Below are positions 6,226-14,557 of a stretch of 20,000 nt of DNA, piece by piece. The stretch lies in IMG/VR virus record IMGVR_UViG_3300042368_000845; one strand, written 5' to 3'. Under the pieces are notes generated by a model. It ran no database searches. It saw only the letters and a program-made list of their open reading frames with translations, and was not told the origin of the DNA. This stretch comes from an uncultured virus (IMG/VR IMGVR_UViG_3300042368_000845) (taxonomy: Duplodnaviria; Heunggongvirae; Uroviricota; Caudoviricetes). The stretch's first letter is position 1. Every line of letters begins with the position of its first letter. Both the position numbers and the translations under genes were made by a program.

Positions 6226-6266
6226 AAAAAAAAGAGGACACTCGCATCAAACGATGCGAATGCCTC
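6226..6266 (-). terminator. Intrinsic terminator overlapping the stop of the wHTH gene
   Basis: Minus strand GAGGCATTCGCATC-GTTT-GATGCGAGTGTCCTC followed by 8 T. Confidence 0.75.
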
Positions 6267-6471
6267 CGTTGCGACCGCGAGTGAAAGTAATCCGTGATCC
6301 GAAATGATCGACAAGAATCTTTCGCATTTCGTTGGTCGTGACACCAAACTGTTTTGAGAGTGAAAGAACCGTAACCTTTTCACCCGAATTGAAACGATTT
6401 TCTGCATCAACGCAAATCGACTTGTACTGATCTGTGTTGAGATTGCCACTAACGACTGTGTTGTTGTTCAT
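6247..6471 (-). CDS. Small winged-helix protein, paralog A
   Basis: VTVLSLSKQFGVTTNEMRKIL...TFTRGRNGGI (Rrf2-like RGxxGG wing); start reset to 6471. Confidence 0.75.
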   Translation of the reverse strand: MNNNTVVSGNLNTDQYKSICVDAENRFNSGEKVTVLSLSKQFGVTTNEMRKILVDHFGSRITFTRGRNGGIRIV

Positions 6472-6477
6472 GCTCAT

Positions 6478-9985: not shown

Positions 9986-10014
9986 ATTATACCAAACCAC
10001 CCATGTAAAATCAA
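9986..10014 (-). promoter_or_regulatory. Sigma70-type promoter, leaderless geometry
   Basis: TTGATT-17-TATAAT-GACCTC-ATG(9979). Confidence 0.85.
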
Positions 10015-10051
10015 TGGCATGGAAAAAAATCTGAAAAACTCTTCAAAGGTG

Positions 10052-10080
10052 TTGACTCACGAAGGAAAAGAAACTAAACT
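10052..10080 (+). promoter_or_regulatory. Sigma70-type promoter, leaderless geometry
   Basis: TTGACT-17-TAAACT-ATGCAC-ATG(10087). Confidence 0.8.
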
Positions 10081-10086
10081 ATGCAC

Positions 10087-10311
10087 ATGGACACAAGCAC
10101 CATTCAAACGGCGACGGCCACGGCCTCGACTCACATTATCGCATCCCTTCTTGAGACTCGCCTCAGCAACAATGAGCGTGTTACCCTGTCGGATCTTGCA
10201 TCCGCAGGAAACATGAGCGTGGTTGAGGCTCGCAAGACGCTGATCCAAGTGTTTGGAACTCGCGTTCAGTTCAAGCGAGGCCGAACGGGGGGTATCCTCC
10301 TCGCCAACTAA
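10087..10311 (+). CDS. Small winged-helix protein, paralog B
   Basis: VTLSDLASAGNMSVVEARKTL...QFKRGRTGGI; aligns with 6247-6471. Confidence 0.75.
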   Translation: MDTSTIQTATATASTHIIASLLETRLSNNERVTLSDLASAGNMSVVEARKTLIQVFGTRVQFKRGRTGGILLAN

Positions 10312-10336
10312 TAGCGAGCCTTGAACTCGCCAAATG

Positions 10337-10371
10337 ATCCTAGTGAGCGAAAGTTCACTAGGATATTTCTT
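10337..10371 (+). terminator. Terminator with GAAA loop
   Basis: ATCCTAGTGAGC-GAAA-GTTCACTAGGAT-ATTTCTT. Confidence 0.7.
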
Positions 10372-10398
10372 GACCGCTCAATCCAAAAAGGGTAAAAT
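10370..10398 (+). promoter_or_regulatory. Sigma70-type promoter, leaderless geometry
   Basis: TTGACC-17-TAAAAT-ACGCAC-ATG(10405). Confidence 0.85.
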
Positions 10399-10404
10399 AC
10401 GCAC

Positions 10405-10803
10405 ATGAACTACGAATCCGATGAAACTCGCGTGTACCAACTTGGAAAACTCTTCTATGAGTTTTCGCGCAGCAATGGGTACAAGGTTGATGACGCAAAC
10501 CACGTTATGGAGATGGTCGATCTCATGTTCGATGATTACATGACTGATGACCTAGTTTCATTTTGGGATGCACTTCGGGACAATGCACAGATTGATGCAG
10601 AATTCTGCAAGATGCTCCTTGAGAGCGGACTGATGGACGAGAATGAAATCTTTGGGCTTGACAATGGACTCGACAGGGCCATCTACGATATGCAATGGCC
10701 TGTGGATGAGGATGGGGTTGAGGGTGAGGACTATTGTCCTGACTACATCATCGTGAATGTCGATGACTACGACTTCGATGATGAGGTTGAGGATGATGAA
10801 TGA
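10405..10803 (+). CDS. Very acidic hypothetical protein
   Basis: 132 aa, D/E-rich, own promoter and terminator. Confidence 0.8.
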   Translation: MNYESDETRVYQLGKLFYEFSRSNGYKVDDANHVMEMVDLMFDDYMTDDLVSFWDALRDNAQIDAEFCKMLLESGLMDENEIFGLDNGLDRAIYDMQWPVDEDGVEGEDYCPDYIIVNVDDYDFDDEVEDDE

Positions 10804-10834
10804 AATCAGGGGGCTTACGCCCCCTGATTTTTTT
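10803..10834 (+). terminator. Intrinsic terminator, possibly bidirectional
   Basis: AAATCAGGGGGC-TTAC-GCCCCCTGATTTTTTTT. Confidence 0.85.
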
Positions 10835-10970
10835 ATTGGTTTTTACTATCAACTTTCTGAGAGTAATTTCGCTTTCGATTCACAGACTTCAAAAACAACA
10901 AATACTTCTTGCCGCGTGATGAGTGTGGGATTGGGCCTGCACCCTTACCCTTACGATAATTTCGTGCCAT
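10833..10970 (-). CDS. 45-aa basic peptide, probably late-expressed
   Basis: MARNYRKGKGAGPIPHSSRGKKYLLFLKSVNRKRNYSQKVDSKNQ; AAGGAG SD; CTAAATA at 10996-10990. Confidence 0.65.
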   Translation of the reverse strand: MARNYRKGKGAGPIPHSSRGKKYLLFLKSVNRKRNYSQKVDSKNQ

Positions 10971-10994
10971 AATAAAAACTCCTTGTCTATATTT

Positions 10995-11260
10995 AGAAAC
11001 AGATATCACCGCTGTTTCTTGACCAGTTGCAACAAGTCAAGTCATACGGTGAATCTGCGCCTCCAATCCATGAGCGTATTATTTATTACAATGATCTGTA
11101 GATTGGATCATATAACAGATCAAGGCCAATAGTAAAAGGTGATATCATTCCTTTTATTTTACGATACTATGGGGAAGCAAACCACCATAGTAAAGCCATT
11201 GGGGAATGGGAGGATTACCCTCCCCGCACTAGACCTAATCCCATTTGTTACTCGTCTAGT
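10995..11260. ncRNA. Candidate structured RNA (7 tandem stem-loops)
   Basis: Inverted repeats at 10995-11019, 11018-11041, 11092-11122, 11133-11156, 11165-11192, 11208-11224, 11228-11260; no credible ORF. Confidence 0.45.
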
Positions 11261-11270
11261 CGAGATCGGC

Positions 11271-11516
11271 TCAGTCGCCGCTGTCGATGGTATGTGAAAT
11301 GTAGACTTCGGTGTTGCCATCATCACGCACCTTGAAGCCATCGTAACTGTTCATCTGACCTCGTTGGTGAGTCTGAACATAGTTCTCACCATACGAGTCG
11401 ATCACTTCCTTGGGGTGAGTACCTTCGATGAGGATCGTGTGGTTCTCACGATTGTAGCAGCGACCAAGATTCATGTTTGTGTAGGTGTGCTTGAGGACTT
11501 TGAGTTGCTGTGTCAT
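11271..11516 (-). CDS. Hypothetical protein
   Basis: MTQQLKVL...; start reset to 11516. Confidence 0.75.
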   Translation of the reverse strand: MTQQLKVLKHTYTNMNLGRCYNRENHTILIEGTHPKEVIDSYGENYVQTHQRGQMNSYDGFKVRDDGNTEVYISHTIDSGD

Positions 11517-11522
11517 GCTCAT

Positions 11523-11551
11523 ATTTTACTCCGCTACTGCCTTGCTGTCAA
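11523..11551 (-). promoter_or_regulatory. Sigma70-type promoter, leaderless geometry
   Basis: TTGACA-17-TAAAAT-ATGAGC-ATG(11516). Confidence 0.85.
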
Positions 11552-11774
11552 TCTTCTTTGTCGTGAAGTCTGAGATTTTGGTGACTTGCAGGAATCCTGC
11601 ACCATTTCCTTCGGGGTCTGCATTTGCAATAACCTCGTAGGTACGCTTGCCGTTCTCAACGATCAGCCCCATGTAAGTATCACCATACTTATCAGGATCG
11701 ACAACGATCTTCTTGATCTTGCCGCCAATGAGAGGCTTGAGGTAATTGAAGTAGACTTCTTGACTGTTGCTCAA
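11526..11774 (-). CDS. Hypothetical protein
   Basis: TTG start with GGAG SD; DPEGNGAGFL segment. Confidence 0.75.
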   Translation of the reverse strand: MSNSQEVYFNYLKPLIGGKIKKIVVDPDKYGDTYMGLIVENGKRTYEVIANADPEGNGAGFLQVTKISDFTTKKIDSKAVAE

Positions 11775-11869
11775 TCGTTGTCTCCGAAAATGTTGTGAAT
11801 GAAGTACCGTGCGACCATTACCGTGGCGATCACGGCAACACAGATTGTGACGATGATGCTAAGTTCCAT
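11771..11869 (-). CDS. 32-aa single-TM peptide
   Basis: MELSIIVTICVAVIATVMVARYFIHNIFGDND; TAATG and TTGA overlaps with neighbours. Confidence 0.65.
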   Translation of the reverse strand: MELSIIVTICVAVIATVMVARYFIHNIFGDND

Positions 11870-12102
11870 TAGATGTTCCTGAATGGGTCAAGAATTTTCA
11901 TGGCTTCGGCAACACGAATCAGGTCATGACGACTGACTACAATTTCGTGTTTTTGTTTGTCGGCTGAATAAACATTCAGCGTGACATTGCTTGTGTTGTT
12001 GTCATCCAAACACACAATCAACCGAACGGACTGATCAAGTGTTGGAATGTCAAATGACGATCCCATGAAAGGTTTGTAGTGATTTGATGGATGTGTTTCC
12101 AT
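11869..12102 (-). CDS. Hypothetical protein
   Basis: 77 aa with own promoter. Confidence 0.75.
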   Translation of the reverse strand: METHPSNHYKPFMGSSFDIPTLDQSVRLIVCLDDNNTSNVTLNVYSADKQKHEIVVSRHDLIRVAEAMKILDPFRNI

Positions 12103-12108
12103 GTTTGT

Positions 12109-12137
12109 ATCTTACCAAAGCCCGATTGTACCGTCAA
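12109..12137 (-). promoter_or_regulatory. Sigma70-type promoter, leaderless geometry
   Basis: TTGACG-17-TAAGAT-ACAAAC-ATG(12102). Confidence 0.8.
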
Positions 12138-12144
12138 GTACAAT

Positions 12145-12368
12145 CAGACATCTACCTTGTGTGGTTGATCGTGAATACAGGTAGACCATCTACGATGGCA
12201 AATATTCACTTTCGCACTCACCCATAACCCTATAATCTTAGACAGATATGATGAGTGTATCTGTCTTGCAGCCAAAATGAACACTTTGACGGGTGTATGC
12301 GAAATTACAGAATACGCATCCCTCTGCCTCCGTTGGTGGAGGAACCATGTAATATAGAACTTACATGG
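12145..12368 (-). ncRNA. Candidate ~220-nt structured RNA beginning AUG-UAA
   Basis: Near-consensus promoter 12401-12373, ATGTAA at 12366, six hairpins. Confidence 0.55.
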
Positions 12369-12372
12369 GCGG

Positions 12373-12401
12373 ATTGTATAAGTAGTTGGTTTCCATGTCA
12401 A
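12373..12401 (-). promoter_or_regulatory. Sigma70-type promoter
   Basis: TTGACA-17-TACAAT-CCGCCC-ATGTAA. Confidence 0.85.
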
Positions 12402-12438
12402 GTACCTACAAACCGTTTTTTTGGCGTTCTGAAGGGGC

Positions 12439-12467
12439 TTGACAAGATTTCAAAACCTTGGTAAAAT
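12439..12467 (+). promoter_or_regulatory. Sigma70-type promoter, leadered transcript
   Basis: TTGACA-17-TAAAAT, then AAGGA SD and ATG 12495. Confidence 0.8.
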
Positions 12468-12494
12468 AAACTGTCTGGTATAAGGAAAACTAGG

Positions 12495-12641
12495 ATGAAA
12501 ATTACCATCAAGACATCTACAAGTACAAGTACCCGCAAGGGCCACCACCACCAACGCCCAAAGACATGGGCGAACAAGGATCGTGACCCAATTCGGGATC
12601 GACGTGATTCCAAGGCCGAACTTCGGAGGGCATTCGCATGA
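12495..12641 (+). CDS. 48-aa basic peptide
   Basis: MKITIKTSTSTSTRKGHHHQRPKTWANKDRDPIRDRRDSKAELRRAFA; ATGA overlap with the next gene. Confidence 0.7.
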   Translation: MKITIKTSTSTSTRKGHHHQRPKTWANKDRDPIRDRRDSKAELRRAFA

Positions 12642-12778
12642 CCGAACTTCTTTGGTGTTTCCTCACCTTCATCTTCTTTGTCTGCTTTGTCATGTGTACG
12701 GTCTACCTCAGCGGGATTCGTTCAGATACCGCCAAGATCATTCGTTATCTTGACATCATGAACAGGAAGATGAAATAA
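12638..12778 (+). CDS. 46-aa membrane peptide
   Basis: MTELLWCFLTFIFFVCFVMCTVYLSGIRSD...; coupled on both sides. Confidence 0.7.
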   Translation: MTELLWCFLTFIFFVCFVMCTVYLSGIRSDTAKIIRYLDIMNRKMK

Positions 12779-12990
12779 TGTGCAAGTGCAATGACTGCGG
12801 CGACGAAATTCCACAGGCACGGCTTGATTTTTTGCCTGATACAGAGTATTGTATCAACTGCTCAGACAAGCACACCTTCAAGTATGTGGCACGAATGATC
12901 TACCCACACAAGACGGGTGGGGATCTTTTCGTAGCCAAGTCAAAGGGTGATGCCGAACGACTCAACCGTGAGTATACGAGGGCAAGATGA
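12778..12990 (+). CDS. DksA/TraR-type C4 zinc-finger protein
   Basis: CNDCGDEIPQARLDFLPDTEYCINC. Confidence 0.85.
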   Translation: MCKCNDCGDEIPQARLDFLPDTEYCINCSDKHTFKYVARMIYPHKTGGDLFVAKSKGDAERLNREYTRAR

Positions 12991-13157
12991 ACCAAATGAA
13001 ACGCATACACGAATCCCTGAACGCTATGCTTGACGAACTCGAACCCGATGAACTCAACATGGTTGAGGATTTCATTGTGAACGAGTGTGATGTGGATGAT
13101 ACTGATGAGAATGGAAATTTTCCAAATCTCTTCAGAATGTTCATCACCTACAAGTAA
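12987..13157 (+). CDS. 56-aa acidic protein
   Basis: MNQMKRIHESLNAMLDELEPDELNMVEDFIVNECDVDD...; ATGA overlap. Confidence 0.7.
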   Translation: MNQMKRIHESLNAMLDELEPDELNMVEDFIVNECDVDDTDENGNFPNLFRMFITYK

Positions 13158-13164
13158 ATCTTTG

Positions 13165-13170
13165 TAGAAT
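13165..13170 (+). promoter_or_regulatory. -10 box with leaderless geometry, weak -35
   Basis: TAGAAT-ACCACC-ATG(13177). Confidence 0.6.
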
Positions 13171-13176
13171 ACCACC

Positions 13177-13413
13177 ATGACCCACTCATTCAATTACTTC
13201 GTCGGCAATCTTCCCGCAGAGATTCCTCTTCACGATTTCATTTACATGGTTCGTGATACGGTTGGTGTCAAACCAGTTATTCTCAAAGAGAGTAAAAATG
13301 GGATTGACTTTCGCATCACCGTCGATGATAATTACGTCGAGGGCTGTTTGGACACGATCCGCAAGGACATGGGCCAAGACATTCAATACCGTACTGGTTT
13401 GAGGATCTACTGA
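13177..13413 (+). CDS. Hypothetical protein
   Basis: 78 aa. Confidence 0.75.
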   Translation: MTHSFNYFVGNLPAEIPLHDFIYMVRDTVGVKPVILKESKNGIDFRITVDDNYVEGCLDTIRKDMGQDIQYRTGLRIY

Positions 13414-13790
13414 TGAGTACATCAACCACCAACCCCGTGTTCATCTACCGCAATCTCACCAAAGGCTGTTGGTCGATCAAGGATACCAAGACCAACCGTG
13501 TTATCGGCCATGCGGATTCAATTCGCTTGGTCAACTGTAGGTTCAAGGTGTCTGAGGCAGGACGGCAGCGAGTCATCCGCGAACGCAAAAAGTATGTTCA
13601 TGCGGGTGTGGTTGGTATGCTGACATCTGACTGTTCAACCATTGACTCATGGAGTCCAGTACGGTATAATCCGTACACCACCACAACCTTTGTCGATGTG
13701 AGTGGTAATGCCGTGCATAGTGCCTCTGCCGTGTTCTTCGACGGCAATGGCAAGGTTTTTACAGAAGAACAAAAAAAGGAACAATCATGA
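13413..13790 (+). CDS. Conserved-looking phage protein of unknown function
   Basis: YRNL..CWS, AGRQRVIRERKKYVHA and YNPY motifs. Confidence 0.8.
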   Translation: MSTSTTNPVFIYRNLTKGCWSIKDTKTNRVIGHADSIRLVNCRFKVSEAGRQRVIRERKKYVHAGVVGMLTSDCSTIDSWSPVRYNPYTTTTFVDVSGNAVHSASAVFFDGNGKVFTEEQKKEQS

Positions 13791-14044
13791 ACTACGAACT
13801 CGTTGCAGGAATTTTCTTTGGCGTTGGAATGTGTGCTACCGCATACCTTTTCTATAGCGTCAATCGTGTGCGTAAGATTGACCTGAACTTGGTTACAAAG
13901 ACCAATGACATCGACAAGGAAGCACTTCGGCAAGACATCAACCACATTCGTGAGGATGTGAACCAAATGTACTCTGACATGGATTTGGTATTGTCTCGCA
14001 TTGAGGCACTTGAGACAAAGCCCAAGCCTAAGAAGAAGGCATAA
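13787..14044 (+). CDS. N-terminal TM plus coiled-coil protein
   Basis: Hydrophobic N-terminus; AAGGA SD. Confidence 0.75.
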   Translation: MNYELVAGIFFGVGMCATAYLFYSVNRVRKIDLNLVTKTNDIDKEALRQDINHIREDVNQMYSDMDLVLSRIEALETKPKPKKKA

Positions 14045-14304
14045 TGACTCAGCAATTTCGCATCAGGTCAAAAACTTGCCATAAATTTGATTACCTTTTT
14101 CGGGTTCATACCTATCCAAACGGTAGTCGTGGTGGTACAATATGGGCCTACAACCATGACAGAGAGGATTTCTTTGCTATGTGCCAAGGTACTACTGGAA
14201 GGCAGTACCTTCGTGGTGATTACATGGATATCACCGAACTTCGTAAAGAATGGAAATCTCTCAGGGAAAATGGTTGGCAAGAGATACCAGTTGAGGTAAA
14301 ATAG
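14044..14304 (+). CDS. Hypothetical protein (RxxWxxL family)
   Basis: TAATG coupling; ELRKEWKSLRENGW. Confidence 0.75.
   Translation: MTQQFRIRSKTCHKFDYLFRVHTYPNGSRGGTIWAYNHDREDFFAMCQGTTGRQYLRGDYMDITELRKEWKSLRENGWQEIPVEVK
14274..14302 (+). promoter_or_regulatory. Sigma70-type promoter, leaderless geometry
   Basis: TTGGCA-17-TAAAAT-AGCCAC-ATG(14309). Confidence 0.7.
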
Positions 14305-14308
14305 CCAC

Positions 14309-14557
14309 ATGGGAGTCAAACTACACAGTCTTTTTTCACCACAAGGTGATATCATGATCCTTTTCGCCATCCATTCGGATGGTACTGGATGTGTTACACA
14401 GAACGAAGGTGGTGAAAATAATGCTAATGGTACTGGTTACACCATGCCATTTCACTACAACGTCTCTTACCCAGTATCCCTACTCAGGAATGAGTGGAGA
14501 TATTTACGAAAAAACTGTTGGAAAACTTCAGAGGAAAGGTGTAGAATTACAGCATGA
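14309..14557 (+). CDS. Hypothetical protein (RxxWxxL family)
   Basis: SYPVSLLRNEWRYLRKNCW. Confidence 0.7.
   Translation: MGVKLHSLFSPQGDIMILFAIHSDGTGCVTQNEGGENNANGTGYTMPFHYNVSYPVSLLRNEWRYLRKNCWKTSEERCRITA

Follow-up and report, generated by a model that had tools for sequence, protein, structure and literature searches.

The glmS ribozyme-riboswitch is the standard natural ligand-dependent self-cleaver. Its ligand is reported to serve as a cofactor (PMC6154101). For the pistol ribozyme (Rfam RF02679), purine 32, G33, G40, C41 and G42 are described as important for catalysis (PMC6154101, PMC6795133), the P1-P2 linker as carrying a highly conserved A19-A20-A21 (PMC6101554) and the 2-nt junction as strictly kept in length with letters that vary (PMC4604425); a conserved U29 is reported to pair with U+1, and the G-U at the cut to be modestly conserved (PMC6795133). 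Ribozymes are further reported to cluster near phage genes and near other ribozymes (PMC4604425). A pseudoknot-containing hammerhead with the same connectivity as pistol has been described (PMC11300833), and T4-type phages carry PeSL cassettes, in which a short repeat of promoter plus hairpin is described as recurring in about 50 copies (PMC2839356). The phage RNA analysed here is, judged by its helices and conserved letters, laid out like a pistol ribozyme, yet it is no member of that family as defined.

The RNA is encoded in a stretch of 20,000 nt (the window) that forms part of a 42.5-kb linear virus record, estimated to be ~23% complete. The window encodes a gp41-type helicase, UvsX, primase, DNA polymerase, ribonucleotide reductase and thymidylate synthase, and the best cultured matches of the helicase are T4-like cyanophages and methylophages, at 54–60% identity. 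Because of these matches and the T4-type gene set, the source of the RNA is classed as an uncultured T4-like phage. Sequencing runs that contain the stretch 11800–12500 are labelled freshwater and wastewater, and a protein with a weak PEP-CTERM-family match in a distant relative (L112 3551–4180, plus strand; E 1e-5, below the cut-off) is a possible clue to the host group. The window also holds two paralogous ORFs of ~76 aa in opposite orientation (10081–10311, plus strand; 6247–6477, minus strand), which flank an AAA-ATPase/peptidase pair. In the early region we counted 73 sigma-70-type promoter-like sites, against 45 ± 7 in shuffles. At 14 of the 23 strong sites in the window, that of the RNA included, an ATG lies exactly 7 nt past the -10 box, which bears out an earlier remark that the RNA shares its geometry with the protein genes; the ORFs listed behind such sites encode 39–697 aa. 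Since the ATG falls right at the predicted +1 at these strong sites, most early genes of this phage would appear to be leaderless.

The promoter of the RNA, of sigma-70 type, lies at 12373–12401 on the minus strand, to which all coordinates of the RNA refer. A first-pass annotation of this DNA had called it near-consensus, and with 11 of 12 consensus matches it is just that: the -35 hexamer stands at 12401, the spacer measures 17 nt, the -10 hexamer ends at 12373 and an ATG-TAA follows 6 nt on, at 12366–12361. The +1 of the transcript is probably the A of this ATG, and we infer that host RNA polymerase transcribes the RNA at the start of infection. With the predicted +1 as its start and the last helix as its end, the RNA occupies 12151–12366 (216 nt; 225–234 nt in homologs). 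The region had been described as ending at the next promoter; this early promoter begins at 12137 (12109–12137, minus strand) and serves a leaderless 77-aa ORF at 12102–11869. The 77-aa protein belongs to the only protein cluster retrieved in a database search, and a 42% identical version occurs in one group of relatives (lineage C, below). Wherever a contig extends far enough, the next early promoter follows the RNA, and the neighbouring genes vary; in locus L306 the gene downstream is a different one.

To collect homologs, we ran the neighbouring TraR/DksA-type zinc-finger gene (Pfam PF01258) as bait against metagenome contigs and recovered 17 loci, nine of which contain the RNA or its 5' part. 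The sequences form three lineages: A (the window, L001 and L314), B (L298 and L300) and C (L302–L306 and L308). Global identity of the RNA is 79% between A and B, 55% between A and C and 51% between B and C, against a background of 47 ± 2% with shuffled sequence. In 10 of the 10 loci examined, the matching position is occupied by this type of promoter. With a sequence-only profile of five lineage-C RNAs, the window RNA was the sole match in the 20 kb (24.8 bits, E 1e-7); a covariance model of the same five, for which the structure was drawn with knowledge of all lineages, gave 75.4 bits for the window RNA and 42.8 bits for lineage B. The 5' half of the RNA is 70% identical between A and B and the 3' half 93%, so that most core columns amount to about two independent lineages. 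The TraR-type gene of L298 is 92% identical to that of the window, next to RNA halves at these 70% and 93%, and recombination between A and B has likely taken place at a point within the RNA. Upstream of the TraR-type gene, L301 (~1985–2130), L307 (at its start) and L309 (~2150–2300) carry a different multi-stem non-coding stretch on the plus strand; L301 and L309 differ in it by changes that are visibly paired, and neither has an Rfam match at E<=0.5.

No reading frame is common to the lineages. An internal ORF of 36 aa, which had been singled out as possibly coding, does exist; its start is lost and its frame shifted in lineage B, and it has no counterpart in C, where 1-nt indels shift the frames even between near-identical members. 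Together with the conserved promoter and the covarying helices described below, the lack of a common frame supports the earlier proposal of an early phage ncRNA of ~220 nt, and on these comparisons the RNA is a conserved non-coding gene. The region is more stable than shuffled sequence (z = -3.66, with 1 of 200 shuffles equally stable). Single sequences of lineages B and C reach z-scores of only -1.5 to -2.3, as chance hairpins or a decayed protein gene might; this is nevertheless the least probable of the explanations that we considered, given the compensatory changes, the high score of the window RNA with the model built on lineage C and the indels among near-identical lineage-C members. Hardly more probable is a start-stop decoy, an idea raised at first sight of the AUG-UAA, in which a leaderless AUG-UAA would trap 70S ribosomes or release factors. 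The AUG-UAA of lineage A (12361–12366) does stand exactly at the leaderless start position, but it forms the 5' arm of hairpin P1 and is not conserved: an AUG at +1 occurs in two of eight sequences, both of lineage A, and neither lineage B nor lineage C has the start-stop. The +1 triplet of lineage B ends in C, opposite a G in the first stem, a compensatory change; because the G of AUG is exchanged along with its pairing partner, it is the P1 helix and not the codon that is kept. The 5' end of the lineage-C RNA is an unrelated short hairpin.

Searches outside these loci returned little. Scanning the whole window with Rfam at E<=5 gave no match in 12145–12401, and a narrow scan gave two irrelevant weak matches (E 0.45 and 9.2), in keeping with the initial impression that no known RNA family is present. 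ARAGORN found no tRNA or tmRNA genes in the window; in two relatives there are tRNA clusters together with a tmRNA, which the program marks with an asterisk, read as permuted and two-piece (L111 8062–8570 and L112 6637–7071, plus strand), and the long intervening stretch of the L111 tmRNA contains a tRNA-Pro. Against GenBank phages, blastn with the window RNA gave no match, and with a lineage-C RNA 13 records, with one 26-nt match at E 0.9 and nothing new. Pattern scans of IMG/VR (27, at least 118, 62, 1 and 64 stretches) yielded, among the matches listed, one near-identical record as the sole homolog; pattern scans of GTDB yielded none and, in another, nine stretches that are alike only around the pattern, three of which gave nothing with the covariance model. 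A DNA search of 42 related virus records produced four short matches only (E 0.04–0.07), and of two RNA models, one found only its own record among 31 records and the other only the near-identical record among 77. Most of the searched records are fragments, so that a lack of matches in them is no proof of absence. In its own record the RNA is single-copy, by DNA search and by model, within the ~23% of the genome that this represents, and no antisense target emerges there, the longest complementary match on the one strand examined being 11 nt. Titles and abstract openings of the papers retrieved contain no report of the RNA. Four short motifs and a sample number are absent from six of the nine supplementary files of a large viral structured-RNA survey (PMC10690425); a prior computational listing is possible in the other three (files 1, 2 and 4). 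Within these searches the RNA has no Rfam family and no GenBank phage match.

For the analysis of helices we used a model-fitted alignment, because MAFFT misaligns P6–P8; this alignment leans to the nested helices of fold I (below), and P7 and P8 were checked sequence by sequence. Pair counts refer to eight sequences, seven of them distinct, with duplicates (L300 and L314), a partial sequence (L304) and repeat copies of the near-identical record excluded. All six stems of the first-pass annotation are found where it had placed them. Its count of six hairpins falls short, since two further helices (12290–12271 and 12209–12202/12178–12171) and all long-range pairings had been overlooked, and its first stem, P1 (12345–12368), exists with 6 bp and -3.5 kcal/mol if the transcript starts at 12366, rather than with 8 bp and -8.7. 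Eight helices are common to two alternative folds. P1 is a variable 5' hairpin that differs in sequence and length per lineage, and P2 (12327–12342) is a 5-bp hairpin present in all three lineages with changed letters. In stem A (12327–12323/12311–12307) all five pairs are 100% paired, four of them invariant and one with a one-sided change. The hairpins P4 (12271–12290) and P5 (12240–12266) show double-sided changes at four of eight and five of nine pairs, respectively, and P6 (12209–12202/12178–12171) at four of eight counted pairs. P7 (12186–12198) is a hairpin in the P6 loop, of 5–6 bp in lineages A and B and 7 bp in C, where two stem variants occur. P8 (12185–12179/12157–12151) is a pseudoknot joining the 3' tail to the P6 loop; it stands outside the pair counts, as the model does not align it, and its duplex has -9.6 to -9.8 kcal/mol in all eight sequences.

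The two folds differ in how they use the same four strands and are mutually exclusive. Fold I adds P3 (12319–12315/12301–12297; four pairs counted, one with a double-sided change), which forms an H-type pseudoknot with stem A, as well as the G33-C41 pair and pseudoknot B (12256–12251/12221–12216). Four of the six pairs of pseudoknot B are invariant, one shows a one-sided change and one is broken in lineage C, with no double-sided change. Fold II has P10 (12320–12317/12253–12250), which joins the stem A loop to the P5 loop, and P11 (12301–12298/12216–12213 plus 12296–12295/12221–12220), which buries G40-C41-G42. In an unbiased listing of helices paired in all rows, P10 has four Watson-Crick pairs in every row and two double-sided changes; a P10-like helix arises in 2 of 150 column shuffles if only Watson-Crick pairs count and in 26 of 150 with G-U allowed. 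All six P11 pairs are 100% paired, with one double-sided and one one-sided change, and the 4-bp part of P11 is present in both the minimum-energy fold and the RNAalifold consensus. The P10/P11 columns do not differ between lineages A and B. Overall, fold I has 95.4% of cells paired and double-sided changes at 16 of 44 pairs, with a covariation score of 0.413 that 0 of 500 shuffles reach, in a control that ignores relatedness and is not a probability; slid controls score much lower. The corresponding values for fold II are 96.7%, 18 of 43 pairs and 0.476, so that it appears supported at least as well as fold I. Summed duplex energies favour fold I by ~2–4.5 kcal/mol in all three lineages, with loops and tertiary terms ignored. 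Because each fold leaves invariant letters unexplained that the other one pairs, we favour a two-state RNA, which the molecule seems able to be. With two effective lineages, either pairing set could be partly due to chance.

The likeness to pistol resides in the 3' half of the RNA. A canonical pistol ribozyme of the same phage lies 0.9 kb downstream at 11202–11265 on the minus strand (34.3 bits, E 0.0048; gathering score 34.5), and one is also present in four of nine related loci; its cut-site dinucleotide is A-U in the window and G-U in L303. Right behind it, a non-coding stretch of ~215 nt (~11200–10985, minus strand) is conserved across lineages far beyond the genes around it; it shows several pairs changed on both sides, contains one RNA-run contig, has no Rfam family and is probably a second structured RNA, with its 5' end made by the pistol. 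In fold I and in all three lineages, the 3' half of our RNA has the same order, spacing and register as this canonical pistol: a hairpin with a 6-nt pseudoknot, a linker, a P2-like helix, a 4-nt loop ending in a purine, then G33-C41, G40 and G42, pistol P3 starting at once, the 2-nt junction and the P2 partner. P5 corresponds to pistol P1, pseudoknot B to its pseudoknot, P6 to its P3 and P9 (12230–12227/12165–12162) to its P2, and these pair in all lineages, with P9 and pseudoknot B weakly covarying and rivalled by fold II. P9 is a weak helix of 3–4 bp with double-sided changes at two of the three pairs counted; by covariation alone it is unremarkable, one among 55 comparable 2-bp stacks, and RNAalifold on the MAFFT alignment pairs its 3' strand elsewhere, a sign of its weakness. 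The core comprises purine 32 (12223), G33 (12222) and G40-C41-G42 (12215–12213). Kept in all three lineages, these residues (purine 32, G33-C41, G40 and G42) are present in six of six sequences compared, and fold II alone can account for the invariant G40-C41-G42, since P11 pairs these letters. Of the ten pistol nucleotides with more than 97% conservation, this comparison covers those that the cited texts name. The 2-nt junction C-A (12166–12167), with the same letters and length in the three lineages, holds the predicted scissile bond if the core is active; in lineages A and B it requires that a single pair and a 2x2 internal loop open P6. A descriptor of the pistol layout, written after the RNA was seen, finds exactly two matches in the 42.5-kb record, our RNA and the canonical pistol. 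It is loose, and two real helices add to its success: it is matched by 42 and 27 of 20000 shuffles of two of the lineage RNAs, and 64 of 70 distinct matches in 3.25 Mb are due to chance.

Like pistol, the RNA also sits in a phage early region, with a true pistol nearby. It differs in that the AAA linker is not kept (the linker word is A-A-G-A-U, and an AAA run occurs only in lineage C, elsewhere), and neither are U29 and the G-U cut site: position 29 is U or C and 30–31 are A-U, giving Y-A-U for 29–31, with C-A at the junction. Pistol P1 has 8–9 bp and P2 3–4 bp, a hairpin and a pseudoknot are inserted in the P3 loop, and the RNA has a 5' domain of ~100 nt, its own promoter and an alternative fold. 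The Rfam pistol model gives no match in 12120–12400 at E<=10, nor does it match the homologous RNAs at E<=0.5. Analogy with the hammerhead described in PMC11300833 gives the same bond, 12167/12166, and lineages A and B carry G-A-A-A past the C of the one-pair stem; as that source presents the hammerhead, however, the RNA lacks its 7-nt core loop C3-A9 (3–4 nt lie between P9 and G33) and loses G-A-A in lineage C, and we rejected this assignment. With PeSL cassettes the RNA shares a strong sigma-70-type early promoter followed by stem-loops, a variable early region and changing neighbours; unlike the PeSLs as PMC2839356 describes them, it is a single copy of 216–234 nt with many conserved helices and pseudoknots past +1 and no repeated terminator hairpin. 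It would resemble glmS, if the preferred reading given below is true, in being a natural self-cleaving RNA under control, and differs in its unrelated fold, the absence of an Rfam match and the strand swap.

Contigs from two RNA runs of one study cover the RNA. Three runs contain part of 11800–12500, of which run X2 is probably DNA and was excluded; since the runs were found with that stretch, cover within it is by selection. In metatranscriptome 1, seven contigs fall within 10000–14500, and the one spanning 12153–12330 has a depth of 14, compared with 4.1–5.9 for the others, a measure that cannot rank genes. In metatranscriptome 2, another sample of the same study, there is a single contig, 12152–12346. 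Both contigs end 1–2 nt before P8 does (12151) and continue for 14–15 nt beyond the predicted cut, an overrun below our 31-nt rule for a bridge. As they come from one study, carry no information on strand or level and may include DNA, they hint weakly at a discrete RNA that ends at P8 and is not fully cut; the overrun speaks against fast, complete cleavage.

Our preferred reading, which we hold tentatively, is that this early phage RNA stands alone and derives its scaffold from the pistol ribozyme, with self-cleavage that is slow or gated. In fold II the 5' domain would hold the P5 loop (via P10) and the G40-C41-G42 strand (via P11), which would keep the core off, and the RNA would sit mostly in this fold, uncut and persisting at full length to P8. 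Once the four strands swap and fold I forms, with P3 and pseudoknot B, the pistol-type centre would be assembled and would then cut between C12167 and A12166. P8 would keep the tail docked after the cut, since P9 has only 3–4 bp. Such a cut would set how long the RNA lives, or would detach it from transcripts that read through into the next early operon. The swap would more likely be triggered by the binding of a protein, from host or phage, than by a metabolite. A stronger version, in which the RNA is a new self-cleaving sister sub-class of pistol with its own junction letters, housed in a dedicated early RNA and gated by the four-strand swap as an allosteric timer or sensor, is rather unlikely. 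It is pure speculation that a read-through transcript cut both by the core of this RNA and by the pistol would give a piece of ~960 nt (12166–11207, minus strand) with end groups permitting circularisation.

Close behind in probability, and likewise short of an even bet, is a non-catalytic decoy or scaffold, which takes up the protein sponge suggested in the first-pass annotation: a compact, nuclease-resistant RNA with fold II as its ground state, made early in quantity, that binds a host protein and in which the pistol features are a relic or a reused scaffold. An RNA of this kind would explain the strong promoter of its own and the large 5' domain, which a plain ribozyme does not need; the contig ends at 12152–12153, adjoining the P8 end and beyond the predicted cut, are consistent with it, as is fold II being best backed by covariation and energy (minimum-energy fold and RNAalifold). 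Candidate targets are an RNA-binding defence protein or bS1, the removal of which would favour the leaderless mRNAs of the phage. We name bS1 because the early genes appear leaderless, with the geometry at 14 of 23 strong sites, and because bS1 is reported to be dispensable for leaderless mRNA and to bind pseudoknots with high affinity (PMC9031893, PMC10931766), a choice that draws on literature on other bacteria. What a decoy leaves unexplained is the pistol register of the pseudoknot B letters, P9 and the 2-nt junction across 51–55% identity. A cis-acting leader or attenuator, either a riboswitch-like two-state element or one of PeSL type controlling read-through into the downstream early operon, is improbable. 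Switches typically have alternative folds, the 3' end of the RNA has no listed terminator-like site and the RNA always lies directly before the next early promoter, but the gene that follows is leaderless and transcribed from a promoter of its own and therefore needs no leader, the downstream gene differs in L306, and the RNA is single-copy as opposed to the ~50 copies reported for PeSLs in PMC2839356. To functions outside the readings considered here we assign a somewhat smaller share still.

The roles of phage ribozymes and ncRNAs are mostly obscure, and here is an RNA without a catalogued family, with its own early promoter and with one predicted bond. If the RNA cuts, the pistol/hammerhead family would be widened beyond its consensus, and if the cut is also gated, this would be a natural allosteric ribozyme in a phage. 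If it does not cut, the phage, with early genes that mostly lack leaders, would have turned a ribozyme scaffold to binding, and an RNA route to the takeover of host translation would become testable.
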